Shown here: piece after piece, positions 5,957 to 21,388 of the stretch
Layout of the letters: each line of letters opens with the position of its first letter
Numbering within the stretch: position 1 is the stretch's first letter
Assembly (NCBI GenBank): GCA_963665095.1
Contig: OY762069.1
Location: 4,320,001-4,384,000, forward strand
DNA from: an uncultured Desulfobacter sp.
Lineage (GTDB): Bacteria > Desulfobacterota > Desulfobacteria > Desulfobacterales > Desulfobacteraceae
DNA: 64,000 nucleotides
Direction: 5' to 3'
Notes under the pieces: generated by a model
What the model was told of the DNA's origin: nothing
What the model saw: only the letters and a program-made list of their open reading frames with translations
The model's database searches: none
Position numbers and translations under genes: made by a program

Positions 5957-8056
5957 TCAGTTAAGCATATATATCTGAGTTTCATTTTCATCGTAAACCA
6001 ATGAAAAAAAATGATTGGCTTTCTTAAATTTTTGTAAAGTATCGGGATATTTTTTCTTTTCCCTCTGACCGATATAAACATAGTCAATCCCCAGGTTTTT
6101 GCAAACACTGGCAGCGTGCTCAATATCGTCAGTCAGGAACATTTGTTTGATCTTTGAAGACCTTTTTTTAATATCCTCTTTCCTGGCAGGAAATAGGCGC
6201 GTTGCAAACGCAATACGCCCTAAACTCATTTTTCTGTCGGCAAAGCAGGGGAATAATGAATACTGGTGATTATACCCAAGCATCCGATTTGTATTTTCAG
6301 TATAATAATGGGGCAGTCCCTGGATAACAGCCTCTTGTTCTGTATTATGTTTAACCCAATTTGCTGCCTGCATATCGCTTTGCAGAACATAGGCGGTATT
6401 ATGGTAATTACTGACATTTGAACCAATATATATATCTAAAAGATATGAAGGTACTGCACTTAAAATTAACACCCCGAATATCAACTTAATCTTTTTACGG
6501 GAAAACCCATCTGAGAATTCATCAATAAAATATGCTGACATGAATAAAAATGCTAATGGAAAAAATCTCATAAGCTTTATAGGACCAGTAATTCGCGAAG
6601 GTAACGAGAATAACAATAAGCAAGAAAACAGCATTATTAAAGCAAAGTCATCGCAAAAAAACCGCTTTCTTTTCCACAGCAGGAGAACGCCGCAAAATGA
6701 AAGAATAGTAGCGGGTCCGTATTCAACAGGAATATACACCGGTGCTGTAATAAGATTTCTTATGGTTCTATCTGGATTTTTATTAAAAATTTTTATAGTT
6801 CCCTCAGGTCTGTTTTGCTTACTATACATCCCCAACGGAGTCAGAACAATTAATAAAAGGCTTAATCCTATCCCAAAAACTATAGCCCGCTTAAAATAAG
6901 ATGCCCGCTGCCCCTGGCGTAAAAGGAACTGTATAAAGACATAGTTTAATATAATAGCGGCTGAAATCAGTCCAATTGATAATTCAAACCCCCATATAAT
7001 GCCTATCAATGCCCCAGAAGAAAAATATTTTTTTAATGATTGCTCATCTGAATTAACCAAAATAAAACATATGGATAGAAGAAATAGGCTTAACCCGACT
7101 AAAACATGAGGCTGGACTAAAATAAAGCGATAAAAAGTATGAGAGTGCCCTGAGCTTTGAACTATATCCGGTAGCCATCTCAGGTCCATAATTCTATTAA
7201 ACAAAGAATCGTTGGTATGTTCCAGCATAATTACAGCATGCTTAAAGACATAAAAAATCCAACTATAGCTGTATGCCCCAACCCCTGCAAGCATGATAAA
7301 AAGCAATGAAGATGTTTTTTTACAGACAACTCTAAAGCAGGCAAATAAAACTGACACAAAATAAATGCCTAAAAACACCTGTACCAAAATCATTATTGAT
7401 ACCATCGAAGCATTGCTGTTCAACAACTTATAGGAAAACGCTGGCAAGGTATAAAATAGAACATAATACTTCATTGGCTCGCCGCCAAAATCAAAACATT
7501 CTGCTGGAAGACCGCGCGCGACCGAAAATGCAACGGAAACGCGCCACAGAAAATCCTGCCCGATAAGCCATGTGTATCCATAGCCCTGATCAGTCAGTTT
7601 ACCGATATTCAAAAAAGGTAAAACAACAGCTATCAGCATAATGAGTATTGATAACACCAATAGGAAATAGTGAAAACTTGACCATTGGGGAAAAGATGGT
7701 CCTGTGAAATTATTTCTTCTTTTTTTTTGATAACCGAACCACCCAAAAAGGAATGAAGTCGTTAAGAAAAGAGCTATGATAGCAAGTATGTTCCACCCAA
7801 ATGCTAACACAAACAGCGTTACAAACAAAGACCCCCCCCCCATACCAATAACAGAGCCAAATATGAGCAAATCCGGCAGATCATAATTCGTAAATGCTTT
7901 TAAGATAAAAGGACCTGGCAGAAAAAAGAGCATAAAGGAAAACAACACGGAGGAGGTTTCAAAGAGGGTTGCCTTGTGAAAACACAAAAAGGCAACTATT
8001 GAAATGATAATTGATAGAAGAAGTATATTACTCTTCATACCTATTCTACTATTCAT
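5957..8056 (-). CDS. Large polytopic membrane protein, GT-C-like (DUF2298/YYY-like)
   Basis: Many TM segments; MKYY, DMQAANWVKHNT and IDYVYIGQRE in a C-terminal soluble domain; family inferred from motifs. Confidence 0.5.
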   Translation of the reverse strand: MNSRIGMKSNILLLSIIISIVAFLCFHKATLFETSSVLFSFMLFFLPGPFILKAFTNYDLPDLLIFGSVIGMGGGSLFVTLFVLAFGWNILAIIALFLTTSFLFGWFGYQKKRRNNFTGPSFPQWSSFHYFLLVLSILIMLIAVVLPFLNIGKLTDQGYGYTWLIGQDFLWRVSVAFSVARGLPAECFDFGGEPMKYYVLFYTLPAFSYKLLNSNASMVSIMILVQVFLGIYFVSVLFACFRVVCKKTSSLLFIMLAGVGAYSYSWIFYVFKHAVIMLEHTNDSLFNRIMDLRWLPDIVQSSGHSHTFYRFILVQPHVLVGLSLFLLSICFILVNSDEQSLKKYFSSGALIGIIWGFELSIGLISAAIILNYVFIQFLLRQGQRASYFKRAIVFGIGLSLLLIVLTPLGMYSKQNRPEGTIKIFNKNPDRTIRNLITAPVYIPVEYGPATILSFCGVLLLWKRKRFFCDDFALIMLFSCLLLFSLPSRITGPIKLMRFFPLAFLFMSAYFIDEFSDGFSRKKIKLIFGVLILSAVPSYLLDIYIGSNVSNYHNTAYVLQSDMQAANWVKHNTEQEAVIQGLPHYYTENTNRMLGYNHQYSLFPCFADRKMSLGRIAFATRLFPARKEDIKKRSSKIKQMFLTDDIEHAASVCKNLGIDYVYIGQREKKKYPDTLQKFKKANHFFSLVYDENETQIYMLN

Positions 8057-8073
8057 AGAACAAAACCCAATTA

Positions 8074-8886
8074 TTAATTAACTTCTAAATTTATATGTTT
8101 TTCTATTGAGATCAACACTTTTTTTTGAAACCGATTTGAAATACTAAAGAGTATTACAGAGCCGATTCCTGAAAGGATAAATGAAAACACAAAACATATG
8201 ACCGCAGAGAGTCTTAATACTTTTATACTAAACAGCAAAACGCCTCCATGTAACAAAAAAAAGCAATAACAATAATTCTGCACGAAAAACAGCATTTCAC
8301 TTAGTTTACTACCATTACCCCTTTTAGGGGCGGCACCTTTTAAAAGAACCCTCGACTTATAGACGCAACCGGCATTGAAAGCTAAAAAATAAAACTCCTT
8401 ATGAAATACAAGACTTATGGCTAACCCAAACACAAAAACCAGACTTTTAATTTCCTTTTTTTTTACTACCTGAATTAAAAATATATAAAAATAAAGCCAC
8501 AAAATTAATGTTATAAACCATGAAATTACATATACTGGGTTATCTAAAAACATGCTACCGCCAAGAATGATAATCAAATATTCCCCAAATCCTGTTTCTT
8601 TATATTGATATAATTCATTAAAAAATATTACCAAGGCAATGACAGGCCAGTAAGGGATCATAATGGCCAGCCCCCTTTTTAATAACCACACAACAAAATC
8701 CTTAAAGGACTTGGTTTGTGCGTCAACCGAAAAATATCCGGATAAAAATACAAAAATTAGAATAGCAAAAAAGTCTATAGGGCTTAAATCTTTTCCATAT
8801 AGACTCCCGTAATGGTAAATATAAATCACAATACAGGAGAATATCCTGGATGTGCTAGCCCAAAGCTCGGGATTTTTTTGGTGCAT
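8074..8886 (-). CDS. Acyltransferase family 3 (OafA-like, short)
   Basis: Hydrophobic; R..S....YIYH, FVFLSGY, KR...IMIPYW, SWFI. Confidence 0.6.
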   Translation of the reverse strand: MHQKNPELWASTSRIFSCIVIYIYHYGSLYGKDLSPIDFFAILIFVFLSGYFSVDAQTKSFKDFVVWLLKRGLAIMIPYWPVIALVIFFNELYQYKETGFGEYLIIILGGSMFLDNPVYVISWFITLILWLYFYIFLIQVVKKKEIKSLVFVFGLAISLVFHKEFYFLAFNAGCVYKSRVLLKGAAPKRGNGSKLSEMLFFVQNYCYCFFLLHGGVLLFSIKVLRLSAVICFVFSFILSGIGSVILFSISNRFQKKVLISIEKHINLEVN

Positions 8887-8918
8887 TTTAGATATAATTT
8901 CTCACCTCGTGCTTAGGC

Positions 8919-9031
8919 CATGAAAATTATAAAGGCCACAAAGTGGGAGCAGAATTTTTGCCCGTATTCAAGGCGCATCAATGGAAGCATATTGAAAAAT
9001 ATGTGCCCATTGATGCAACGAAGAAGACAGG
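8919..9031. repeat. Left part of a palindromic REP/MITE-like element split by IS21
   Basis: Nested arms gcatcaatgg/ccattgatgc and catatt/aatatg; contains caaggcgca and gcaacg as in the repeats at 51.1, 60.9 and 61.8 kb; outer arms pair with 12384-12429. Confidence 0.6.
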
Positions 9032-9130
9032 TGTCAGGCGGGGCGTGAACATGTCATAAATCTCCCGGTTTAAAAATGTAGGCGATTAAAGGGCCGGCCT
9101 CCAGATGCATGTAGACCGGCCTCGGCTTTG

Positions 9131-9865
9131 TTATTCTTCCGTCACATCTTTCATTCTAAAACTCTTACCCTCAATGACCACAGGCTCGGTGTGGTGAAGA
9201 AGCCTGTCCAGCAAAGCTGATGTTAATGTCATGTCATTGTTGAAGATCTCCGGCCAATCTTTGAACACCCGGTTTGTGGTTATTATGATGGCTCCTTGCT
9301 CATAGCGCTGACTGATAATTTGGAACAACAGGTCTGCCCCAATCTTGTCAATGGGCAGGTAGCCCAGTTCATCCATGATCAACAAAGTTGGCTTGAGGTA
9401 TTTTCTCAGTTCCTGCTTTAACTGACCCGCCTTCTGGGCTGCCACCAGATTGTTGACGATATCAATGGCAGAAGAGAACAGAACCGTATGGTTTTTCAGG
9501 CAGGCCTGGTAACCTAAAGCAGTCGCAATATGTGTTTTCCCAACACCGACCGGGCCGATCACGATAATGTTACCCTTTTCTTCAATGAACTTGAGTCTGA
9601 ACAGATTCTGGGTCTGAGCCTGATTGATTTTTCTGGGCCATGACCAGTTGAACTGGTCCAGGGTTTTGATTACCGGGAACTTGGCCATACGGATACGGCG
9701 CTGGATGGTTTTATCATGGCGCAGTAGTGATTCATGCCTGGCAAGCTCTGATAGATATTGAACGTGGCTCCATTGCTTCTGGGCAGCCAGGGTAGCCACT
9801 GACTCATAGTTTTCCCTGATATAAGGTAGTTTTAAGTGGGACAGGCATTTCTCAAGATCAGGCAT
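9131..9865 (-). CDS. istB: IS21 helper AAA+ ATPase IstB
   Basis: Walker A GPVGVGKT, Walker B LLIMDELGYLP, ALLDRLLHH; overlaps istA end by 8 bp. Confidence 0.95.
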   Translation of the reverse strand: MPDLEKCLSHLKLPYIRENYESVATLAAQKQWSHVQYLSELARHESLLRHDKTIQRRIRMAKFPVIKTLDQFNWSWPRKINQAQTQNLFRLKFIEEKGNIIVIGPVGVGKTHIATALGYQACLKNHTVLFSSAIDIVNNLVAAQKAGQLKQELRKYLKPTLLIMDELGYLPIDKIGADLLFQIISQRYEQGAIIITTNRVFKDWPEIFNNDMTLTSALLDRLLHHTEPVVIEGKSFRMKDVTEE

Positions 9866-11333
9866 TTTTATCTCCTATGGCGGTATAAATATTAAGATCA
9901 GGCTCCTGGATTGTCAGGTTCAGTAAATCTGCTTTATGTGTAACATGCAGGGCTCCGGGCTCCTGGGGAGACCGAACCCGCTGCTCAAGGAGGTTGGCGA
10001 TGTATTCACATGAGAATGCAGAGAACTTAAAGGCATCTTCAATGGCCATGGCAACTTGTTCCCGGGAGTAGATTTCACTCAAGGCCACGATTTGCCGTAC
10101 ATGATGGGAGGCGTTAAGCCGCCTGTTCTGCAATTGCCTGTAATACTCCCGGGCCTTGTCAGAGAGGCTTAAAAAACGCATATAAATTGCCTGGTCTCTG
10201 GCCTTTTTGCGCTGGCTCAAAAGGATTTTAGAGTGATCAGGATCTTCAAGGTCGTTTTTGCGGCCATAGGATCTGACATGGCGGGCAACCAACTTGTCTT
10301 CATGGTAAAAGCAGATCCGATCAGGGTAAAGCTTGGCAGTCAAAGCCACCCCTGCCAGCTGGGCGGGTACTGTGTAAGCATTTGTATCGATGACTACCCT
10401 GTACTGTCTTGAAGCCCGTACCTGCTTTACCACACCGATATCATAGGGTTCTGACGGCAGAGGGTATAGGTGGGGCAATTCCAGGGCATACATCTCTGCG
10501 GGCTTTTGACCGGTCTCTCCGTGGGTTCTGACATTGGCGACAGTATCAAGCCAGTGTTTGCAGGTGGGCTCCATGATCTTAAAATCAGGGATTTCAAGAC
10601 CGTTGAGCAGATTCTTTTTGACATAGCCCACAGCATTTTCAACCCGGCCTTTTTCATTACCCTTGCGCACATTACAGGGAACAATTGTAAATCCGTAATA
10701 ATCTGCAAAATCAAGGTATCTGGGGTTGAAGACCGGGGCTTTCCCCAGCAGTCTTTTTAGAACAGCGGATTTGAGATTGTCCACCATGACCTTTTCCGGC
10801 ACCTTTCCAAAAAACTCAAATGCATTCTGGTGGCAGCCTAAAAAATGCTCCATGGTCTGGGAGACCGTGAACTCAACGTACATCATGCGGCTGTGGCACA
10901 TCACCATCACAAAAAAGCTCAACCGCCGGGTCGTGTTGCCCACCCTTACTGTACTATAAGAACCCCAGTCCACCTGGGCAGCTTCACCCGGAGCAAAACT
11001 CAGTTTCAAATACGCCTTTGTTTTGGGCGGCCGCACCTTCCTGACATAATCCTCAACAATGGTGATGCCCCCGGCAAAACCATCCTGGGTGATTCGTTGA
11101 AATATCTGGCGGGAACTGTAGGGATGTTTTTCAAGCATATGCAGGATGGCGTTCTTATACGGATCAAGCTTGCTTTCTCTGGGGGCTGACTGTCTGGGCT
11201 GGTACCTTTTCAGGTTGGCCCACCTGGCAACTGTCCTGGGGTCCAGATCAAGGGCATTGGCAATCTGGCTGTATGTCAGGCCGTCTCGGGTAAAGTAATT
11301 TCTGATTTGAACATAGGTTTCGTAATCAATCAT
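9858..11333 (-). CDS. istA: IS21 DDE transposase IstA
   Basis: N-terminal HTH, SKLDPY, PGEAAQVDWG, VMVDNLKS, KGRVEN. Confidence 0.95.
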   Translation of the reverse strand: MIDYETYVQIRNYFTRDGLTYSQIANALDLDPRTVARWANLKRYQPRQSAPRESKLDPYKNAILHMLEKHPYSSRQIFQRITQDGFAGGITIVEDYVRKVRPPKTKAYLKLSFAPGEAAQVDWGSYSTVRVGNTTRRLSFFVMVMCHSRMMYVEFTVSQTMEHFLGCHQNAFEFFGKVPEKVMVDNLKSAVLKRLLGKAPVFNPRYLDFADYYGFTIVPCNVRKGNEKGRVENAVGYVKKNLLNGLEIPDFKIMEPTCKHWLDTVANVRTHGETGQKPAEMYALELPHLYPLPSEPYDIGVVKQVRASRQYRVVIDTNAYTVPAQLAGVALTAKLYPDRICFYHEDKLVARHVRSYGRKNDLEDPDHSKILLSQRKKARDQAIYMRFLSLSDKAREYYRQLQNRRLNASHHVRQIVALSEIYSREQVAMAIEDAFKFSAFSCEYIANLLEQRVRSPQEPGALHVTHKADLLNLTIQEPDLNIYTAIGDKNA

Positions 11334-11712
11334 GGTTGCCCTCCGCTGCTGCTTTTAGAATATCTGAAAGACGCAGCATGGAGCCGTGCCGTTTTGATTT
11401 ACCAGGAGCAGGGTCAAGGGCAAGCACCTGGTAAATAGGTCTCTGCCAGGCAATCAGCCCATTCTGTATTAACCCGGAACGTGCTGTCTTCAGGCCATCA
11501 GAATCCATGCACAGCCGATCCATGATCGCCTTATCTCCATAGTAGCTGATGCCTTGACTGTCGGCCACACACACCAGAAACAGATATAGGGCGGACTGGG
11601 AGTGTGTACACCTGTCAATGTGCCGTTCACGCACCAGGCGATGATCGATCCAACTGAAGCTTTGGGGTGTTTTTCGAACCCTGGATGGTAAAATGGGGGC
11701 CTTTGCAATCAT
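11326..11712 (-). CDS. IS21 accessory protein, predicted winged helix-turn-helix
   Basis: ATG with AAGGAG SD; overlaps istA start by 8 bp; FSWIDHRL, LYLFL..VAD..GISYY, L...GLI pattern resembles wHTH domains of replication-initiator type. Confidence 0.65.
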   Translation of the reverse strand: MIAKAPILPSRVRKTPQSFSWIDHRLVRERHIDRCTHSQSALYLFLVCVADSQGISYYGDKAIMDRLCMDSDGLKTARSGLIQNGLIAWQRPIYQVLALDPAPGKSKRHGSMLRLSDILKAAAEGNHD

Positions 11713-12193
11713 TTTGCTCTCCTTCTTTTTGGGGTTGTGAACATAAAATGTCTTGCCCGTATTTTTTCATACGAAGGAGCGTGGAAGCGATGTCATCTTG
11801 TAACGCACTGCCTGTAAAGTTGGCGATTAACCCTATAATGACAGGAGGTTGCGCCCGTAAGAAATCTTGTAACGCATTGTCCATGAATTGCGTTGAATCC
11901 TGTTTATTTTCAGCCTGTTGGGGCAATATCGAGTCTTGTAACGTATCTGGGCTTTTGGTCTTCTTCCAATATCCGGGATTCTTCTTTCTCCATTCCTGAA
12001 CACGTTCAACATGGGCAGGCCCACAAAAGTAGTTTCGATTTTCAGGCTTGTTCAGCCATTTTTTCTGGCTGCACCTTTTGCTGGCTTTTCTGCACTCAGA
12101 TCTGGAACAGTATTTTTGAGAGTCTATATTTCTTGGATTAGGAGCGAATAATCTTCTACAATTTCGGCACCTTCTTTTCTTGAGTAGTCCCAT
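11627..12193 (-). CDS. IS21 accessory protein, Cys-rich putative Zn-binding
   Basis: CRNC...YCSRSEC, basic N-terminus, VQEWRKKNPGYW, three (A/T)LQD repeats; GGAGG upstream; inside the IS ends. Confidence 0.65.
   Translation of the reverse strand: MGLLKKRRCRNCRRLFAPNPRNIDSQKYCSRSECRKASKRCSQKKWLNKPENRNYFCGPAHVERVQEWRKKNPGYWKKTKSPDTLQDSILPQQAENKQDSTQFMDNALQDFLRAQPPVIIGLIANFTGSALQDDIASTLLRMKKYGQDILCSQPQKEGEQNDCKGPHFTIQGSKNTPKLQLDRSSPGA
11796..11945. repeat. Three direct repeats TCTTGTAACG(C/T)A at 69-bp period
   Basis: Copies start at 11796, 11865 and 11934. Confidence 0.85.
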
Positions 12194-12559
12194 CTACATA
12201 TTGCCTCCGATTCAAATCAGACATGAATAAGATCAGTATGTACGGAAAAAAGCAGAGGGCAAAGAAAGGAAAAAAATGAAGAAGACGAAATTTTTAAATT
12301 TGATTTTTAAGAGAAGAAAAACCAGCTAAGAACATACATTTTCAAACCGGGGATTTGGCTGCATTTTCAAGACGGCCCTGACAGACAGGTAAAAAAAACA
12401 AGCCGTATTGTGGTTTTATTGTTTCTATGACCCTTATTGTAGACGATTTTTCGTGGCTTTAATCCCGTTTTGTGCATTACCCACAAAGACATGGTCAGAA
12501 TCGTCACTTTTTACGCATATATCCTGGAAGCTAAAATTTTTATCCGGGAATAACGTGAC

Positions 12560-13990
12560 TTATATATTTAAACGAATTTTGTAATTTTTGACCATTATAT
12601 AAAGCCCGCATAACAAAAAAATAAAAGATGAAATTGAAGCAAAACTGCTGCCCCCCCAAAAACATATTAATCTATAAATCGCTATTGATATAAGAATAAA
12701 AACAAGAGGGATTCCCAAAGTAAAACAAAGTCGCAAACCAGATGTTCTTGCTAAAAGCATCATTCCTATGATCATCCAACTATAGACACTTAGCAAAACA
12801 GATCCTACGCCCCCTTTCAAGCCATAAGTATGAATTAAGAAGCCAAAACTCAAATACAAAACCAATATCGCCAATACTCCTACCAAAGCAATACTCCAAT
12901 TTTTTCTTCGCGCAAGGAGCGTTTGATAGCAAGCACTTCCTGCGGCAAAAGGTGCCGAAATAGCAACAGCAAGTGGCAATAATTCTGCTGCGGGAAGGTA
13001 TCTCTCGCCGAATACCATACGAATTATAGGCGCGGCTATTGGCAGCATGAGAAAGCCCAGCGCCGTGCCAGCCAACAGGTAAATGCCACTGAGTACGCTA
13101 ACAAATTGTAAATCCTTTCCATCATTACGGTTAGATGCTCTAGCCAAAGCTGGAAGAGCCGCCCTTCCAATGACAGAAGGCAATGTCCCAGAAAGTACAA
13201 CGCATTGCATCGCTAACCCGAAGTGACCACCGGCATCCCCAACAGTGTTCAGATGGCGGGAGAGTACCAATGGCATTTGTAGCAACCAGGCATAGGTCGC
13301 CTGCGCTATAACTAAAGGAATAGCTGATATGATCAAAGTTATAACCTTATTGACTGGTAGCAGAAGAGGTACAAGACCCAAATATCGGTACAAATAAATG
13401 AGCCCATATACACCCTGCAAAATCCATACTGACGCGTGAACAATTGCAATACTAATAGCTCCGCCTCCTGAAAACAGAACTAAGATTAAAGCTACTATTT
13501 CAATCGGTCGAAAAATAACCTCCTGAACGAGAGTATGTTTTGCTTGCTCTCTGGCAACAAATACCTCCTGTACCCAATACGCAGTGCTTCGTCCTAGAAG
13601 GGCGACCGAAAACACGGCGAGTAATATCTGATTTTCTATGTTCGGATTTAGAATCACACCAATACATAGGCACAAAAATCCAGCAACGAGCGTAGTTCTA
13701 AATCTCAAAGAGAATGTTTCATTAACGGTCTTTTTTGCACTAAAACGGCTGGTGCCGATCTCCCGGCTAAGAATAATACCTGTCGCGAAAGAAGCAAAAC
13801 TTAAAAATGACAAATACCAAGCTTGACCATATACAATTAAACCAAATAAGTCTGGCCCAAGTTGTCTTGCTACAAAGATAACATAAAAGGCTCTCATAGA
13901 CAGCGTCACGGATTGCGCACCAAAAAGGTGAACTGCATTCCTGATCACAGAGTATATTCCTGAGCGATTGTGAACCAGACCTAATTTCAC
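12560..13990 (-). CDS. wzx: Wzx-type flippase (MOP superfamily)
   Basis: ARQLGPDLFG, ILSREIG, many TM helices, FGERYLPAA. Confidence 0.8.
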   Translation of the reverse strand: MKLGLVHNRSGIYSVIRNAVHLFGAQSVTLSMRAFYVIFVARQLGPDLFGLIVYGQAWYLSFLSFASFATGIILSREIGTSRFSAKKTVNETFSLRFRTTLVAGFLCLCIGVILNPNIENQILLAVFSVALLGRSTAYWVQEVFVAREQAKHTLVQEVIFRPIEIVALILVLFSGGGAISIAIVHASVWILQGVYGLIYLYRYLGLVPLLLPVNKVITLIISAIPLVIAQATYAWLLQMPLVLSRHLNTVGDAGGHFGLAMQCVVLSGTLPSVIGRAALPALARASNRNDGKDLQFVSVLSGIYLLAGTALGFLMLPIAAPIIRMVFGERYLPAAELLPLAVAISAPFAAGSACYQTLLARRKNWSIALVGVLAILVLYLSFGFLIHTYGLKGGVGSVLLSVYSWMIIGMMLLARTSGLRLCFTLGIPLVFILISIAIYRLICFWGGSSFASISSFIFLLCGLYIMVKNYKIRLNI

Positions 13991-14056
13991 TATTCCTCTG
14001 CCATTTTTTTATCCGATTGCCTGTTTCTTGATTTTATTGTTTATCCACAGGGGAGT

Positions 14057-15520
14057 CAATGTCATAAAGTTAAGAGCGCTCATGTAAAAGCTTTGTAAAT
14101 ACAAGAGATTATGATACAATTACCCTTAATAATAACCCTAAATATTGTTTGTGAAAGGAGAATAAAATGTCTGAAAAATTCAATCAACTTGGCATGGAAC
14201 CTGCTATCCAAAATATGTGCCGAGCTAATCGACTATCTTAAAAATATTCTGCATTCCCCGGAATTTATCGACAGACACAAAAAAAACAAGAAAGATTTCG
14301 CACGCAAACGAACACTAACATTCCAGACGCTTTTTTTATATTTCATGAACTTTATAAAAGGCTCATATCAAGACGACTCGATCATTATTTTAAGGCGTTG
14401 TTTCGACTGGATGTTCCAGTTACACTTGTCCCCAAAATGGCTTTATCTCTGGCGCGCAAAAAACTTGAATATGACGTCTTTATAGAGTTTAATCACCATT
14501 TTGAGTTCTTCTATAACCGTTTTCGCAGCATAAAAACCTGGAAGGGTTTTAATCTCCTTGCTATCGACGATAGTACGCTAAAATTGTTTAAGTACAAAGA
14601 AATCAGGGAACATTTCGGTGTGTTGAAACCGAATAAAGGACCTGCTTGTGTAATGGCACGGGTTTCTCAAATGTTCGATGTACTCAATAAGGTTACAATT
14701 GATGCCATTATCAGCCCTTTTAAAGTCGGAGAACGCGAGCTGTTCCATAATCATATGCTTAATCTGCTCCCGAATGATTTGCTTTTATTAGATCGCGGCT
14801 ATCCGGCTTATTGGATTTTTAATCTGATTATGTCTTTGGATAGCAACTTTTGCGCAAGAATTTCAAAACAGTGGAAAATCGTTCAAAATTTCATTAAATC
14901 GGGTGCCCAGGAAGCCATAATTGATCTTCATGCTTCGTACCAATCAAAAAAAAATGAATGTGAAGAAATGGGCCTTGACGATTCTCCCTTGTGTTTGCGC
15001 CTTATACGAGTCGAACTCGATAGCGGTGAAATCGAAGTTCTCATCACATCACTGATTGATGAACAAAAATTTCCTTATGAAATCTTTATGGACTTATATC
15101 ATAAACGCTGGCCGGTGGAAGTTGATTATCTTTTCATGAAACAACGCATTGAAATTGGAAATTCTTCCGGTACAACAGTATTGTCTGTCTATCAAGATTT
15201 CCATTCAAAAGTCCTGGCAAAAAATCTTACGTGGGTACTGGCCTCCCCAGCTCAGGAGACAGTTGAGAAGGAAGACCATGAGAAAAAGTTTGAATATCAG
15301 CTGAATATGACACAGGCAATTTCAAAATCTAAAGACACACTCTTTTTGCTTTTTGAAAGACTGCGTGAAATTACCGCACAGTTGATTAAGGACCTTCATG
15401 CTATTTTCATGGCTGCGACAGAACCCATTAGGCCCGGGCGTAAATTTAAACGGAAACATAAGATCAACAAGCGTGAGCACTAGATGAATTATAAGCCTTG
15501 TCGTTAACTTTATGACATTG
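14057..15520 (+). mobile_element. IS4-family element, 1,464 bp, degenerate
   Basis: 17-bp perfect IRs CAATGTCATAAAGTTAA; 10-bp target duplication ACAGGGGAGT at 14047-14056 and 15521-15530. Confidence 0.92.
14111..15483 (+). pseudogene. IS4 transposase pseudogene
   Basis: N-terminal part (DFARKRTLTF...SYQD) and DDE part (LLAIDDST, LLLLDRGY, LYHKRWPVE) are in different frames, with the shift near 14378; TAG at 15481 is followed in-frame by MNYKPCR ending in the IR. Confidence 0.8.
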
Positions 15521-15696
15521 ACAGGGGAGTAATATTAGCAAAAACACAAGAAATGAACAAATTTTTAGCTTTAGTTTTTATAACCCCAATAAATAAAAAG
15601 CATATTATTTGGAATAGCGCAACATGTGGTTCGAGGACAATTTACGTTAACATTTCTTAAATTTCCTGTTAGTTTTGCACCAACTTTTCAAAGTAC

Positions 15697-16938
15697 CTAT
15701 GAAATTGTACTGTTCCCATTGCTAAGCATCCCTTGATAAACATCAAGGTATCTTTTTGCAACATTATCAAAATCAAAACGGTAGGCAAGTTTAGGGGCTG
15801 CGCGTGCAAAAACAGTTCGCAGATTATTATCTTTTAATAATTTTATAATAGCATCTTGTAATTCATTTTCACTGTGTCCTGCCAGCACAACTCCAGCCGT
15901 CCCTTCAAGTCCAAGCGAAGGAACAACCCCAACGGGAGTTGTAACCACGGGTAGCCCACAGGCTAAAGCCTCGATTATTACGTTCCCGAATGCTTCAAAG
16001 TGTGATGGAAGAACCAATACATCGGCTGCCTGCATAAGTTTAGAAACATCTTTTTGCAAACCGAGTGGCAAAATGCTATGGCAATTTTTTGCAGCCGTCC
16101 TGACCGCTTTGTCCATGTCTCCAGTTCCTGCGACAACTAATGTCACATTGGGAATTGATGAATGAATAAAGGGCCAAATATTAAGAAGATTCTTTATGCC
16201 TTTGGATTCAACGACCCTTCCTACAAATAATACGATTAGTTTACCATTGAGCCCGAAATATTGCATGACTTTATCCTTTTGAAAATTTTCAAGAGGGTAA
16301 AATCTACGCAAATCAACCCCGTTTATAACCTTTATCAACTGGTCACCCCGAAAACCGCATCGAAGAGACTCTTTAACGATATTATCGTTAAGTACAGCAA
16401 GCTTGTTAACATTTAAAAGTAGGGGCATCAGTAAGTACCGAAAACCGCTTTGATAAATTTTTTGAATTTCCCCTTTAGGCCCACCAACACTTGGTTTCAT
16501 AATCATAGGGATGCCAAACAACTGAGATATCATCAACGCACCAAGCCCCGTTGCCGACAAAGTATGGCTATGAATTACATCATACTCTGCTGCATGTGCG
16601 TATAAATAGTTAGCGGCTGCAAAAAATTGAGAGACACTTTGCACCCGCCCCCCAAAAGTACGAACACGAGTAACTGAAATGCCATCAACTTGATCATGTA
16701 AGGGCATATGCGCTTCATGTCGGGTACTAAGGACATGGACTTCTATCCCAAGCTTCATCAAAGATTTGGATAATTCTAAAGCTTGAAGTTCAGCACCAGC
16801 GAAATGATATGGTGGGAATCTTTGACAAATCATCAAAATTCTCATAGTTGGTGAATTGATAGCCTTTAACTTTTTTCTATGTCTTAATACTTGGCGTACT
16901 TTTGTAAAAAAATTAGTTTTTAGCATAAAAATCACCAT
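15697..16938 (-). CDS. GT4 glycosyltransferase (probable start MRILM at 16845)
   Basis: AGAE, NGVD, LFVGRV, EAFGNVIIEALACGLPVV. Confidence 0.85.
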   Translation of the reverse strand: MVIFMLKTNFFTKVRQVLRHRKKLKAINSPTMRILMICQRFPPYHFAGAELQALELSKSLMKLGIEVHVLSTRHEAHMPLHDQVDGISVTRVRTFGGRVQSVSQFFAAANYLYAHAAEYDVIHSHTLSATGLGALMISQLFGIPMIMKPSVGGPKGEIQKIYQSGFRYLLMPLLLNVNKLAVLNDNIVKESLRCGFRGDQLIKVINGVDLRRFYPLENFQKDKVMQYFGLNGKLIVLFVGRVVESKGIKNLLNIWPFIHSSIPNVTLVVAGTGDMDKAVRTAAKNCHSILPLGLQKDVSKLMQAADVLVLPSHFEAFGNVIIEALACGLPVVTTPVGVVPSLGLEGTAGVVLAGHSENELQDAIIKLLKDNNLRTVFARAAPKLAYRFDFDNVAKRYLDVYQGMLSNGNSTIS

Positions 16939-17071
16939 TTCTGCACAATAATCACAACTTTTTAATCCATCATTTTAGAATAGCGTCAGAAAAGTCACAT
17001 TATTTAATAATTTATGTGATAAATAATAGAGATGTTCTCATTTTATTCTCTCAGCAATGAAACAACATGAA

Positions 17072-18190
17072 TTAAAAAAAATTCTCGACACATGTTACCA
17101 AATAATTCCATGAAAACTTCTCATTGGCTTTAGCGATGTTTTTCTGCATGCATTCAACATCGGTTTCAGTAAAATAGTGATTTACACTTTGGGCAATCTG
17201 GGTGCAGTTTGATGGCTCTACAAGGAATCCGGTTTTTCCATGTTCGATCACCTCGGGCAGGCAGCCGACGCTGGTTGCAATAACAGGCTTATTAAATGCA
17301 AATGCCGTCTGGATAACCCCGCTGCCAGTTGCCGAAACATAGGGCTGAATCACCAGATCTGCAGAACTGAAATAGCTCCCCACCGCTTCATTGGGAACAT
17401 ATTCATCCACAATCACAATGTGCTGCTCAAGCCCAAGAGCTTTAATCATGGATATATATTCCGCTTTGTCCTTCCAGAACTCTCCGACAATCATCAGGGT
17501 AGCATCATTATGCTTGATGATCTCGGGCATGGCCTGAATTAAATACTTCAATCCCTTGTATGGTCTTACAAAACCAAAAAAAAGAAGAATTTTTCCTGTG
17601 ATCTTGTATTTGGACCGTACTGCCTGGGGGGTGCAATTAGCCATGTTAAACACATCATAGGTTGGATGAAAGGTCTTTTGGACCCTGGCTCCGGGAAGGA
17701 TGTGCAGTAAATTATTCAGATCCTCATCAGAGTGAACAATAAATCCGGTACCTCGTTTAAGAACAATTCCGGTCAAAAGCTTGTCCAGGGCTTTGGATTC
17801 ATGTTCCACAACATTGTGGCATAAAAAGATGAGCCTGGCGTTTGAGAAACGCTTAATTATAAAACTGATGGTCCAGAACTGGGGCGTCCAGAACGAAACC
17901 CACCACGGAATGATGACAAGATCGGGCTTGTGTTTTACAATTTTGAGGGCAGACCGAATCCAGGTGGCCGGGTTCATGGAATCCAAAATCTTGTGCACCC
18001 CCGGTTCGGAAATATGAGAAGTACTGGGGTCAATATCGGTTTTTCCCGGAAAGAGCCACTTGGGATATTGCCTTGAAAAAGCAATGAACAATGTATCATG
18101 CTGTTTGCGCAAGTGTCTGTACAACAGCGTTGTATAGTGAGAGATCCCCCCCCGAAACGGGTGGGTAGGACCGATCAGACAAATTTTCAT
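17072..18190 (-). CDS. GT4 glycosyltransferase
   Basis: GPTHPFRGGISHY, LFFGFVRPYKGL, SATGSGV, KPVIATSVGCLPE. Confidence 0.85.
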   Translation of the reverse strand: MKICLIGPTHPFRGGISHYTTLLYRHLRKQHDTLFIAFSRQYPKWLFPGKTDIDPSTSHISEPGVHKILDSMNPATWIRSALKIVKHKPDLVIIPWWVSFWTPQFWTISFIIKRFSNARLIFLCHNVVEHESKALDKLLTGIVLKRGTGFIVHSDEDLNNLLHILPGARVQKTFHPTYDVFNMANCTPQAVRSKYKITGKILLFFGFVRPYKGLKYLIQAMPEIIKHNDATLMIVGEFWKDKAEYISMIKALGLEQHIVIVDEYVPNEAVGSYFSSADLVIQPYVSATGSGVIQTAFAFNKPVIATSVGCLPEVIEHGKTGFLVEPSNCTQIAQSVNHYFTETDVECMQKNIAKANEKFSWNYLVTCVENFF

Positions 18191-19149
18191 TTGCCCTTTT
18201 CCCTGTTATCAGCATTAAGTTCAAGCATTTTTACCCTGAGCAGTGTCTCTTCAATCAGCTTCCGGTTAAAGCCGATAACGTCCGCGACAAGCCCGATCAT
18301 TAGAACCTGAAAACCAGTGATGAACATAATCGCAGCAAAAATTAACGACTGGATATGTCCTGCACCAGCCCCTGCCAGAAAATAGTAAATAAACCTTATA
18401 GAGGGAATTAAGCCTAATAAAATCATCAGACTTCCGACATAAAAGAACACCCTTAAAGGCTGGTACATGGTATACATCCGGACGATTGTTGTTATCTGAT
18501 TTTTGACGAATTGAGGAATGCTTTTAAACAGGCGGGAGTCCCTGGTTTTGGCATTTGTACCTATAGGCACTGAGTCCACAGCTAAATGCTTTTTACCTGC
18601 CTGGATCACGGTTTCAATTGTATAGGAAAATGGAGAGACGATATTCATCTGCATAGCTGCAGACCGCTCAAAAGCCCTGAACCCGCTGACTACGTCCGGA
18701 ACCGTTGTCTCAGAAAGGACTCTGACAATAAAACTGCCGATTTTCTGCATTTTTTTTTTTGATTTACTGAAATGTGGAATCTTATCAGTCTGCCGGTCAC
18801 CAATCACAATTTCAGCTTTCCCGGCCAGAATGGGCTGAATTAATTTGGAGATATCCTCACCTCTATACTGGTTATCTCCGTCTGTATTAACGATAATATC
18901 GGCCCCAAGCCTGAGACAGGCATCAATTCCGGCCTGGAATGTTCGTGCAAGGCCTTTGTTTTTGCTGTTTCTGACAATATGATTCACTCCGATTCTTTTG
19001 GCGACTTCAACAGTTTTATCGGTTGATCCGTCATCAATAATAAGCACCTCTACCTCATCAATGCCCTCAATTTGTTTGGGAATATCAGCAAAGGTCTGGG
19101 GAAGTGTCTCTTCTTCATTATAGCAAGGGATCTGTACAATCAGTTTCAT
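18187..19149 (-). CDS. GT2 glycosyltransferase (DPM1-like with C-terminal TM hairpin)
   Basis: IPCYNEE, IDDGSTD, NTDGDNQY, DVVSGFRA. Confidence 0.88.
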   Translation of the reverse strand: MKLIVQIPCYNEEETLPQTFADIPKQIEGIDEVEVLIIDDGSTDKTVEVAKRIGVNHIVRNSKNKGLARTFQAGIDACLRLGADIIVNTDGDNQYRGEDISKLIQPILAGKAEIVIGDRQTDKIPHFSKSKKKMQKIGSFIVRVLSETTVPDVVSGFRAFERSAAMQMNIVSPFSYTIETVIQAGKKHLAVDSVPIGTNAKTRDSRLFKSIPQFVKNQITTIVRMYTMYQPLRVFFYVGSLMILLGLIPSIRFIYYFLAGAGAGHIQSLIFAAIMFITGFQVLMIGLVADVIGFNRKLIEETLLRVKMLELNADNREKGK

Positions 19150-19895
19150 TTTATGGAATCCTTGTTTTTACGCTGGAAGATTGATTGGGCGCTATTCTTC
19201 ACAAGGCTTGCCGCATACCTCATTTGAAATTTTAAGTCAGACTCCTTTTTGGTAATGCCCTCTCTTCTTATATGAGTATAGTCTTCCGGTGTTATTTCAA
19301 TCCTTAGATAATCATTAATGATATGGATGACATCCCGGGACTTTAGCTGGGCATAATCAATATGCAAAAAGGGAATATTATTTTCGCTTAAATACCTGTC
19401 AACAGCCAGATTTTCCAGATGATAGGTCTGGACAACATCTTTCAGGGTAAAATTTATGTGGTGTTTGGCATGGCTGCGAAATACAAGATATGGATCCCTT
19501 GTTATTTTGATGAATGATATATCATCCTTTGTTAAAAACTGATCCCAGAAATGAATAGTATAACACAGTCTTGGATCTTTCCATAGCCAAGGGGATTTTC
19601 CCCCGCAATGCTTTACAAAATCAGCACACTCATTGTGCAGATTATCATTATTGACAGCTTTGATCCGGTTGATATCTGCAAATTCAGACTTTACAATATG
19701 TGGATGATTGTACCCGGCTGCATGCAGGATCTTTTTATTTAACGCTTTTAATTCCGGGTTTTCATAGTCTCCGTCCGGATAACTGTTCCGCGATTGAATG
19801 GACTGTTGTTCAATGTAATATCTTCTGTATGATATGAGTCCTGACAAAAATGATGATCCTGTCCGGCCTGCGCCAAGAATAATTACGTTTTTCAT
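19146..19895 (-). CDS. Sulfotransferase-like protein
   Basis: ILGAGRTGSSFL, WLWKDPRLC, ITRDP...FRS. Confidence 0.65.
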   Translation of the reverse strand: MKNVIILGAGRTGSSFLSGLISYRRYYIEQQSIQSRNSYPDGDYENPELKALNKKILHAAGYNHPHIVKSEFADINRIKAVNNDNLHNECADFVKHCGGKSPWLWKDPRLCYTIHFWDQFLTKDDISFIKITRDPYLVFRSHAKHHINFTLKDVVQTYHLENLAVDRYLSENNIPFLHIDYAQLKSRDVIHIINDYLRIEITPEDYTHIRREGITKKESDLKFQMRYAASLVKNSAQSIFQRKNKDSIK

Positions 19896-19909
19896 TGTAA
19901 CCTAAACTC

Positions 19910-21388
19910 TCATGATATTTGAAATTTAATTTTCCCCTTGCTCAGCCTGACCTCTTTCCAGACAAAAAGATAAAAAACAATGAAGTATTCAAGACCTACC
20001 AGAGGTGCAAACCACAAATTGTCTCCAAGATTCTTATTTATCAGGTACAATGCCGATAATAAAAAAACAGGCTTGATGATTACGTTATAGTAATAACGTG
20101 TCTTCTCAATCTCAAGTTTTGTCAATGCATACCAAGGTGTGATGACAAGGCTTGTAATGATAAAAACAAATATAGAACTCACAGCAATCCCGTAAAAATC
20201 GAACATACGTAGGAAAATCAAGCTTGTAACCAACTTCAATACAGCTTCGGCAATACCTAAATATCCAAAAAATTTATTTTCCCCAATACCAATCAATACA
20301 TGAATAAGTATGCTCTGGCTCATAAACAGAATCTGAGAGAATAAAAGCAGCATCAAAATCTGCCAGGAGACATCATAACCGGGTCCCATCCACAACTCGA
20401 TAACCAGTCTGCCAAAAACCCCCATGAAAAGCAAAAAACCAAGCAGGAAGCTGATGGTGTATTTTGGCAGAAGCATACCCATTTTCTGAAGGCTTTCCAT
20501 CTCATTTTGTGCGTGCAGTTTGCTGGCAAAAGGCAGGATTGTTCCCCGGACCCCCTTTGGTATCATCTTGGCATATCTGCATAACGATTCACCAATGGAG
20601 TATAAAGTTACAACACGCATGTCAAAAAAAATCCCGACCAGAATCAGATCGGTCTTTTCCAGCAACCGCATTGATACCATTCTGATAAAATTGTAGAGGG
20701 TAAACATATAACTGCTTTTAATTGATTTCAAATCAAGGTTTTTAAATGAAATTTTAAAAAACGGTGCTATTTTCAATACGATAAATACATAAACCAGATT
20801 CCTTAACGCATCAATCCCCAGAACAAAAAGACCCGCGCCAATAATTCCATAGTTCATCTTCAAAACAACAATGATTCCTATGGATTTGATAATTGAAAAT
20901 ACAGTCAGGATTGCATTTCTTAAAACGAATTTTCGGTAGCAAAGGACAACGGACCGAAACGTATTGCAGACAAGTTCTATACCAAAATTTACCGCAGTAA
21001 TTATAAAAAGAATCTTTGTCTCAGAAACCTGATCCGACGGGATATTAAAAATAACTTCCAGTTTCCAAACCAGGCATGAAACGATAATCATCAGCAGACA
21101 GAAAACACACAAATAAAGAAAAAAAGCTGCTGTAATGATAGCGTTGGCTAAAGAAAAATCTTTCTGCTCTATGTATTGTGTAAAAAATTTCTGAATTGAT
21201 GAACTTATGCCAAAATCAAGCATCCCGTAATAAGCCGTAAATGACATTGCAAGAGACCAGATACCGTATCTTATATCTCCAAAACTGCTGACAATAATCG
21301 GTGTTGCAAAAAACGCGATAATATAGGCGAAAAAAGAGCCTGCCCAATTAGCAGCCGTTGCAATGCCAATCTCTTTTTTTAAGCTCAT
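19910..21388 (-). CDS. wzx: Wzx-type flippase / polysaccharide biosynthesis protein
   Basis: TPIIV..FG..RYGIW, LDFGIS, multi-TM, LWMGPGY. Confidence 0.82.
   Translation of the reverse strand: MSLKKEIGIATAANWAGSFFAYIIAFFATPIIVSSFGDIRYGIWSLAMSFTAYYGMLDFGISSSIQKFFTQYIEQKDFSLANAIITAAFFLYLCVFCLLMIIVSCLVWKLEVIFNIPSDQVSETKILFIITAVNFGIELVCNTFRSVVLCYRKFVLRNAILTVFSIIKSIGIIVVLKMNYGIIGAGLFVLGIDALRNLVYVFIVLKIAPFFKISFKNLDLKSIKSSYMFTLYNFIRMVSMRLLEKTDLILVGIFFDMRVVTLYSIGESLCRYAKMIPKGVRGTILPFASKLHAQNEMESLQKMGMLLPKYTISFLLGFLLFMGVFGRLVIELWMGPGYDVSWQILMLLLFSQILFMSQSILIHVLIGIGENKFFGYLGIAEAVLKLVTSLIFLRMFDFYGIAVSSIFVFIITSLVITPWYALTKLEIEKTRYYYNVIIKPVFLLSALYLINKNLGDNLWFAPLVGLEYFIVFYLFVWKEVRLSKGKIKFQIS

Follow-up and report, generated by a model that had tools for sequence, protein, structure and literature searches.

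The locus studied here raises the question of why an insertion sequence carries a 12-bp sequence three times at a fixed period inside one of its genes, i.e., whether these repeats are DNA sites or a repeat in the encoded protein and, if they are DNA sites, which protein reads them. In the window, meaning the whole 64,000-nucleotide stretch of Desulfobacter sp. DNA that we analyzed, TCTTGTAACGCA is present at positions 11796 and 11865 and TCTTGTAACGTA at position 11934, an exact 69-bp period, and these are the sole zero-mismatch matches. This agrees with a sequence-only reading of the same DNA, as does the observation that all three copies, on the minus strand and within orfA (11627-12193), encode (A/A/T)LQD with the codons TTA CAA GA. 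We refer to these repeats as R1 (11934-11945, minus strand), which is promoter-distal, R2 (11865-11876, minus strand) and R3 (11796-11807, minus strand), which lies at about -53 to -42 of a predicted orfB promoter. The array is found ~440-590 bp inside the element, counted from its left end. The 12-mer occurs 41 times in this 6.9-Mb genome, with 39 occurrences in copies of the same element and 2 in one other element containing an orfA homolog. In homologs, conservation extends over more than 12 bp, and the unit reads tGCGTTACAAGAT.yCTTaa.....CAA in the first two copies and tGCGTTACAAGATGACAT in the promoter-proximal copy.

The element containing the repeats belongs to the IS21 family (9032-12383, minus strand; 3,352 bp), with TGTCAGG...CCTGACA ends that we read off the flanks of all copies, and contains four genes, orfA, orfB, istA and istB, with orfA the first of these. 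Ten full-length copies are present in the genome, and 13 copies of orfA. The 6-bp target-site duplication on the right (9026-9031) is identical to its partner on the left (12384-12389), and 5 of the 10 full-length copies have a target duplication of 5-7 bp, with none in the other 5. Typical IS21 members contain istA and istB only, and TG...CA ends, repeated terminal sites and a short target duplication are features of the family. Our element has these ends, sites and duplications in common with the family, together with IstA and IstB proteins that score above the NCBIfam cut-offs: istA (9858-11333, minus strand) encodes a DDE transposase of 491 aa (NF033546, 275 bits, cut-off 160), and istB (9131-9865, minus strand), located directly downstream of istA as in the family, encodes an AAA+ helper ATPase of 244 aa (NF038214, 268 bits, cut-off 200; PF01695). 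Two terminal repeats of the IstA type (consensus T.AAA.TG / TGAA..TG, 25-bp period), which from IS21 biology we take to be sites bound by IstA, are located at the left end (12333-12383, minus strand) and conserved in 47 aligned homologous left ends; the right end (9032-9082, plus strand) also contains two terminal repeats, and has no TTCTTC array. What sets it apart from the family are the two genes in front, the internal repeat array, a further array near the left end, and an internal promoter that we predict. In short, it is an IS21 element to which a cassette has been added.

A circular or joined-end intermediate is a feature of the IS21 family, and the corresponding end-to-end joint was not found in the contigs of four sequencing runs, contigs being assemblies that drop rare forms; no RNA run was among those listed as containing the element. 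Contig depth over the element was ~9-16x that of the flanks in runs X1 and X4, which agrees with the chromosomal copy number, with the proviso that contig depth is not a copy number and that the flanks were barely covered in runs X5 and X14. The element is housed in a low-GC polysaccharide cluster (window 5957-21388), with a flippase-type gene (12560-13990) on one side and an acyltransferase gene (8074-8886) on the other, and a 76-bp palindromic sequence (window 8953-9028), with two copies elsewhere in the genome that are 76-79% identical, adjoins its right end. A second insertion sequence (window 14055-15522) encodes a DDE_Tnp_1 transposase that is apparently frameshifted, and has a terminal inverted repeat of 19 bp without mismatch; the genome contains partial copies of this insertion sequence elsewhere.

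The repeats are DNA sites under sequence-level constraint

We examined codon usage at the repeats in aligned homologs, starting from 124 loci, of which 99 cover orfA residues 25-150 at ≥40% identity, and 63 remained after dereplication at <85% nucleotide identity (mean 67%). Among these 63, the Gln codon is CAA in 62 of 62 sequences at each repeat (186 of 186 in total), and the Leu codon is TTA in 59, 60 and 58 of 62 at the three repeats. The codon before Leu keeps its last two bases while the residue alternates between Ala, Thr, Pro and Ser. As a control, two conserved Gln columns in the N-terminal part of orfA contain 72 CAA vs 50 CAG, and the N-terminal codons in general vary synonymously, with the Cys residues invariant. 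Among 60 columns with a conserved Leu in IstA, IstB and OrfB, the share of the top codon ranges from 0.25 to 0.88. Conserved columns where one codon accounts for at least 94% number 9 of 246 in IstA, 1 of 120 in IstB and 0 of 41 in OrfB, vs 15 of 55 in orfA, and 11 of these 15 are located in the repeat region, the rest being in the orfB ribosome site and the orfA-orfB overlap. The spacing is likewise conserved, at 69/69 in 55 of 63 homologs.

An antisense or other overlapping reading frame and an RNA structure were both considered and rejected, since no alternative frame is open in more than 22 of 61 homologs, and the consensus fold over the repeats has an energy of -1.4 kcal/mol with 3 pairs (window z-score +0.6). 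Distant orfA homologs contain other motifs in the same layout, TTGCAAAGATGGAC in class B, CTTGATATACAAG in class C and TTTTAAGAGG(T/C)GAT in class D, in addition to classes E and F, with the motif present in our element designated class A. Of 38 dereplicated class-B arrays, 24 have the spacing (69,59), which puts the last copy out of frame, and in class B this copy usually lies beyond the orfA stop codon. The frozen codons, the lack of any other conserved frame or of RNA structure, and the presence in relatives of copies with other motifs and out of frame demonstrate that the repeats are DNA sites under sequence-level constraint and not a protein repeat, as the sequence-only reading had proposed in describing them as DNA sites embedded in a coding sequence. 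The alternative that it had left standing, a 23-aa protein repeat, together with an overlapping ORF or RNA structure as the source of the conservation, is scarcely credible: class A does have LQD at 23-aa intervals, and most of 150 distant representatives show 23 aa as their last spacing, but the synonymous freeze, the out-of-frame and non-coding copies in sister clades, and the frame and fold results stand against it.

The spacings also show some helical phasing (p ~0.002 at 10.5 bp and 0.16 at 11 bp), a result that is suggestive only, as the test used 46 spacings from related proteins, with 69 excluded. The number of repeats varies from 1 to at least 5, via deletion or duplication between repeats (loci L012, L102, L139 and L217; proteins P0125, P0131, P0154, P0239 and P0241). 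By eye, the repeats resemble the left terminal repeat in this copy of the element; we rejected them as IstA sites, since the terminal consensus differs and the motif occurs without IstA. Resemblances to Xer/dif, integron and IHF sites were also weighed, and dropped.

Candidate readers of the two arrays

Two proteins encoded by the cassette could be considered as readers of these sites. The gene orfB (11326-11712, minus strand) encodes a 128-aa winged helix-turn-helix (wHTH) protein of the replication-initiator N-terminal type, an assignment that had been made from the sequence and that a structure model (pLDDT 84) and a fold search confirmed; its Shine-Dalgarno sequence, AAGGAG (11719-11724, minus strand), is evident in the sequence, and the GGAG is conserved. 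The best PDB match of OrfB is the RepA_N initiator 4PTA (Z 8.3, rmsd 2.9, 84 residues aligned), tied with generic wHTH proteins, and OrfB also matches phage replisome-organizer/GpO-N/RepL proteins and, separately, PHROG 428 (E 0.004); an Atlas search returned HTH_36 on 11% of one cluster. It is these best matches, i.e., to RepA_N and phage replication initiators, that make the idea of iterons attractive.

The other protein, OrfA (188 aa; minus strand), contains an N-terminal CX2CX16CX4C (Cys4) zinc finger followed by two helices, with the repeats located in the half of the gene encoding the C-terminus, and its structure model is confident for residues 1-80 only. OrfA had no match in Pfam, NCBIfam or PHROG, no fold match exceeded Z 4.2 or fell below E 0.06, solved structures yielded no match by sequence, and an Atlas search returned unnamed clusters only; known activators were not matched by sequence or by fold. 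Among 44 OrfA N-termini, 13 weakly match HNH-endonuclease PHROG families.

Comparison of protein trees separates these two candidates. On trees of the OrfA N-terminus (OrfA-N), changes of motif class are at the minimum (5 of 5 possible, and 3 of 3), vs 7 and 6 changes on OrfB trees (minimum 3). In these OrfA-N and OrfB trees, class A is represented by a subsample of 10-11 rows, and the support for many forks is weak. Identity to the nearest class-B OrfB is 66-78% for class-D OrfBs, with only 38-41% identity between the corresponding OrfA N-termini, and the distance of class-D OrfBs to class-B OrfBs equals that among themselves. In addition, orfB is missing in 18 of 147 dereplicated orfA loci, with arrays kept in 6 of these 18 and 0-1 repeats present in the other 12, several of which are visibly truncated; in all 5 genomes tested that carry orfB-less elements (61-98% complete), no orfB was found anywhere. 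In a further 11 loci, the gene accompanying orfB encodes a distant relative of OrfA and lacks the triple repeat. Part of the co-variation between motif and OrfA can be explained by linkage, because the repeats lie in or beside orfA. On these comparisons, motif class follows OrfA, OrfB is clearly not required for the arrays, and we regard OrfA as the likely binder of the 69-bp repeats. The earlier proposal that the wHTH protein reads them is not supported, since the OrfB tree mixes the motif classes and the arrays are retained in elements that lack OrfB or have another gene in its place.

A second array, of the TTTTCTTC type, is located round an AT-rich core at about 12230-12325 (minus strand; bounds approximate), between the left terminal repeats and orfA, with 77% AT at 12265-12325, and is missing from the right end. 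At least two copies of the repeat of this left-end array are present in 122 of 129 loci with orfB vs 3 of 18 without, and the mean copy number is 4.1 with orfB (n = 129) vs 0.8 without (n = 18). Linkage does not explain this association, because orfA separates the array from orfB. The array type (TTCTTC or TAATTC) changes 3 times on the OrfB tree vs 4 times on the OrfA tree, a small difference on trees with many weak forks; classes B and D have their left-end-array type in common, and the array becomes ACCCCGCC in 6 of 6 loci where orfA is followed by a CHC2 zinc-finger gene. These observations suggest that the left-end array, which covers the presumed region of the orfA promoter, is likely the site of the second protein of the cassette, OrfB. 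The analogy with lambda O that was drawn from the sequence, which we extend to RepA_N, fits the fold of OrfB, but not the repeats to which it was applied, since the likely OrfB sites are those of the other array, near the left end.

The distant OrfA-like zinc-finger gene noted above (hhalign 81%) lies upstream of orfB, without a triple repeat, at loci L167, L169, L170, L175-L177, L189, L195, L198, L203 and L208. A conserved GC hairpin precedes this gene, with a second long stem near the ribosome site, and these stems are possibly a cis-acting RNA that has taken over control.

A predicted promoter and the proposed expression switch

We analyzed the region between the last repeat and orfB for promoter elements. 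A plain consensus promoter scan found nothing in the window, and a search for orfA's own promoter located none; alignment by distance from the last repeat identified a putative extended -10 at 11761-11769 (minus strand), TG-n-AAAAAT here and TG-C-AACAAT in the family, with a predicted start near 11754. In class A, TG-n-nAnAAT is found at offset 37 from the last repeat and is conserved also at synonymous positions; across 50 dereplicated loci, TG is present in 49, A(-11) in 50 and T(-7) in 44. The class-A -10 lies in coding sequence, and in matrix scoring a rival candidate at offset 53 scores equally. The stretch after the last repeat is mostly non-coding in class B, and here TA is found at offset 41 in 28 of 38 arrays (34 at offsets 40-41), vs a median of 2 at other offsets and 1 of 38 after the previous copy. 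This TA is often preceded by TG, with a GAC-containing -35-like word 17-18 bp upstream, and T is present at -7 in only 10 of 30. All four class-D arrays have TA at offset 37 (TCGAC/ATGAC-18-TA), and in the two class-C arrays neither offset shows TA. In most class-A loci, the last repeat starts ~94 bp before orfB, a distance that is ~65-83 bp in class B; relative to the predicted start, the last repeat is located at about -53 to -40 in classes A, B and D (about -51 to -36 in class D). Taken from alignments, this pattern predicts a weak sigma70 promoter before orfB-istA-istB in classes A, B and D, with the last repeat touching the -35 region.

What the comparisons show is constraint at the DNA level, a fixed geometry, motifs that co-vary with OrfA, and independence from OrfB and from recombinase type. 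We infer, with a probability of roughly 0.6, that OrfA is an element-encoded activator of the predicted orfB-istA-istB promoter, binding R1-R3 and activating from R3, and that OrfB likely represses orfA. OrfA, made from a promoter at the left end, would bind R1-R3, and R3 would recruit RNA polymerase, in a class II-type arrangement, to the promoter with the extended -10 at 11769-11761. R1 and R2, with spacings in ~10-bp steps, might aid by cooperative binding, or may be sinks or roadblocks in the path of the orfA transcript. In what is the weakest step, OrfB, as the first gene product of the activated operon, would bind the left-end array over the orfA promoter region and shut orfA off, and the outcome would be a self-limiting, short pulse of transposase.

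The same binder could act with the opposite sign, i.e., OrfA may be a repressor, either by occluding polymerase at R3 beside the -35 region or by acting as a roadblock at R1 and R2 that stops transcription entering from the left end or a host promoter. This is equally compatible with all of the evidence that links the motif with OrfA and the promoter, and sites inside the regulator's own coding sequence suit a roadblock. CapR of the phage satellite PLE, a zinc finger derived from the DNA-binding domain of a homing endonuclease and since domesticated, is a repressor (PMC8096241), which the weak HNH-endonuclease matches of the 13 OrfA N-termini call to mind. R3 is upstream of the -35/-10 core, however, rather than over it, and the promoter is off-consensus (class D and the CHC2 type have an 18-bp spacer, and class A has A at -12), as in activator-dependent promoters (PMC4542580), so we consider repression unlikely, although it is the main rival of our model.

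Activation by OrfA also compares favorably with a role of the repeats in recombination, as a recombinational or transpositional enhancer of the Mu IAS or Hin/Gin type that aids assembly of the synaptic complex. Their internal position and phased spacings of 59, 69-70 and 78-81 bp would suit such an enhancer, but these motif classes are found alike in front of DDE transposases, tyrosine-recombinase trios and a serine recombinase, and what stays fixed (the ~94 bp of most class-A loci) is the distance to the following start codon and -10-like sequence. We find this quite improbable.

In lambda O, the origin repeats lie inside the gene. This is the basis of the iteron proposal, where the repeats would be iterons of a replication origin read by OrfB, with IstB, which belongs to the DnaC/DnaA ATPase group, as a DnaC-like loader. 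Origins of both the RepA_N and lambda types lie within coding sequence, for example, in pSK41 the origin repeats are inside rep (PMC5703833), and our repeats share with these systems direct repeats in a coding linker under DNA-level constraint and, in OrfB, the same wHTH fold; the ~10-bp phasing of the spacings would also fit. They differ in that our repeats are outside the wHTH gene and do not co-vary with OrfB, with arrays persisting without it; in that no AT-rich unwinding zone lies beside them (57% AT in the repeat region vs 53% for the element), the last copy instead abutting the predicted promoter; in that OrfB does not contain the C-terminal, primase/helicase-binding domain of an initiator; and in that the cassette also precedes recombinase trios without IstB. 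Iterons read by OrfB, which the sequence-only reading had suggested beside operator-like sites, are therefore very improbable here.

SetCD, AcaCD and FlhDC act at off-consensus promoters with a site touching the -35 region (PMC4542580), and the likeness to our locus lies in a site that abuts the -35 of a weak predicted promoter in classes A, B and D, though not seen in the two class-C arrays. If OrfA and OrfB formed a two-subunit activator of this kind on the repeats, the zinc-binding and wHTH proteins, the overlapping genes and the sites beside the -35 region would all be accounted for. Against this, elements that lack OrfB, or have the CHC2 finger in its place, keep the sites and the promoter geometry, and OrfB tracks the other array, making the chance of such a complex slight. 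In contrast to SetCD and AcaCD, which are master activators in ICEs and IncA/C plasmids, and to FlhDC, the likely reader here is one small zinc-finger protein, with three phased repeats in its own gene and within a 3-kb insertion sequence. No FlhC or FlhD match was found in Pfam, NCBIfam, PDB or fold searches, an absence from match lists that is compatible with homology.

For OrfA as a regulator, a comparison with Ogr of P2 and Delta of P4 is also instructive. Ogr has the Cys spacing CX2CX22CX4C, different from that of OrfA, and Ogr/Delta targets are phage late promoters, whereas the predicted target of OrfA is the transposase operon of its own element; no Ogr/Delta Pfam match was found among 44 OrfA members at E 0.1. 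The likeness is that Ogr/Delta and CapR, like OrfA as we predict it, are small Cys4 zinc-finger transcription regulators on mobile elements (PMC8096241).

Spread of the cassette and its sister elements

Our survey identified the cassette in front of IS21 istA, ParB plus IS21, tandem tyrosine recombinases of the RIT type, and a serine recombinase, based on a scan of 46 proteins encoded downstream, 3 of which had no match. Matches to orfB are present in 72 of 301 genomes of the order, orfA is present in 110 of 401 genomes of the class, and OrfA-like proteins form 2,228 clusters at 50% identity. For example, Caballeronia plasmids carry the cassette with the same class-A motif. Scans of viral contigs found 0, 1 and 1 loci only. 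A ParB-type gene, downstream of orfB, precedes an IS21-like transposase at loci L207, L209, L167, L189, L192, L198 and L200. We found no description of the cassette in the open-access literature, and a two-regulator cassette common to unrelated mobile elements apparently has not been described.

RIT elements are described as three recombinase genes flanked by inverted repeats, and these descriptions mention no regulatory cassette (PMC3414803, PMC10214605). Two or three tyrosine recombinase genes in tandem follow many of the sister cassettes, one of which is in this genome, at ~6.186 Mb (G000:C1:6183500-6187200; L265). This element contains a class-A OrfA, 42% identical to that of the IS21 element, a CHC2 zinc-finger gene in the place of orfB, and tyrosine recombinases. 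It also contains the same three repeats at 69/69, with the CHC2-type left-end array upstream and TTGATG-18-TAAAGT at the same offset from the last repeat, and OrfB is available to it in trans from elsewhere in the genome, a caveat to its use as evidence that the arrays do without OrfB. Of 30 CHC2 loci that we fetched, 6 have orfA upstream, and 5 of these 6 show class A or D arrays by pattern search. The small CHC2 zinc-finger gene has no orfA match upstream in the other 24 (within L296-L325), and some genomes hold 16 matches.

To our knowledge, insertion sequences are usually regarded as lacking transcription factors of their own. This cassette appears to equip IS21, RIT-type and serine-recombinase elements with a two-protein expression switch, made up of two unannotated and predicted DNA-binding families with predicted sites, and offering several orthogonal activator-site classes. 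A more doubtful extension is that it forms a portable trigger and replication module, where OrfA would fire a pulse via the 69-bp repeats and the second protein, in both cases a replication-derived domain (the initiator-type OrfB or the primase-type CHC2), would recruit the host primosome at the left-end array, with IS21 and RIT elements driving their own copy-out replication and not relying on host fork repair. As stated in a 2023 paper, transposition of RIT elements had yet to be reproduced in the laboratory, and supplying OrfA is a direct route to testing their mobility. As this genome contains both a class-A IS21 element and a class-A RIT element with a common motif, cross-activation between unrelated elements can be tested here, and the RIT-type element at ~6.186 Mb could be cross-activated by the OrfA of the IS21 element.
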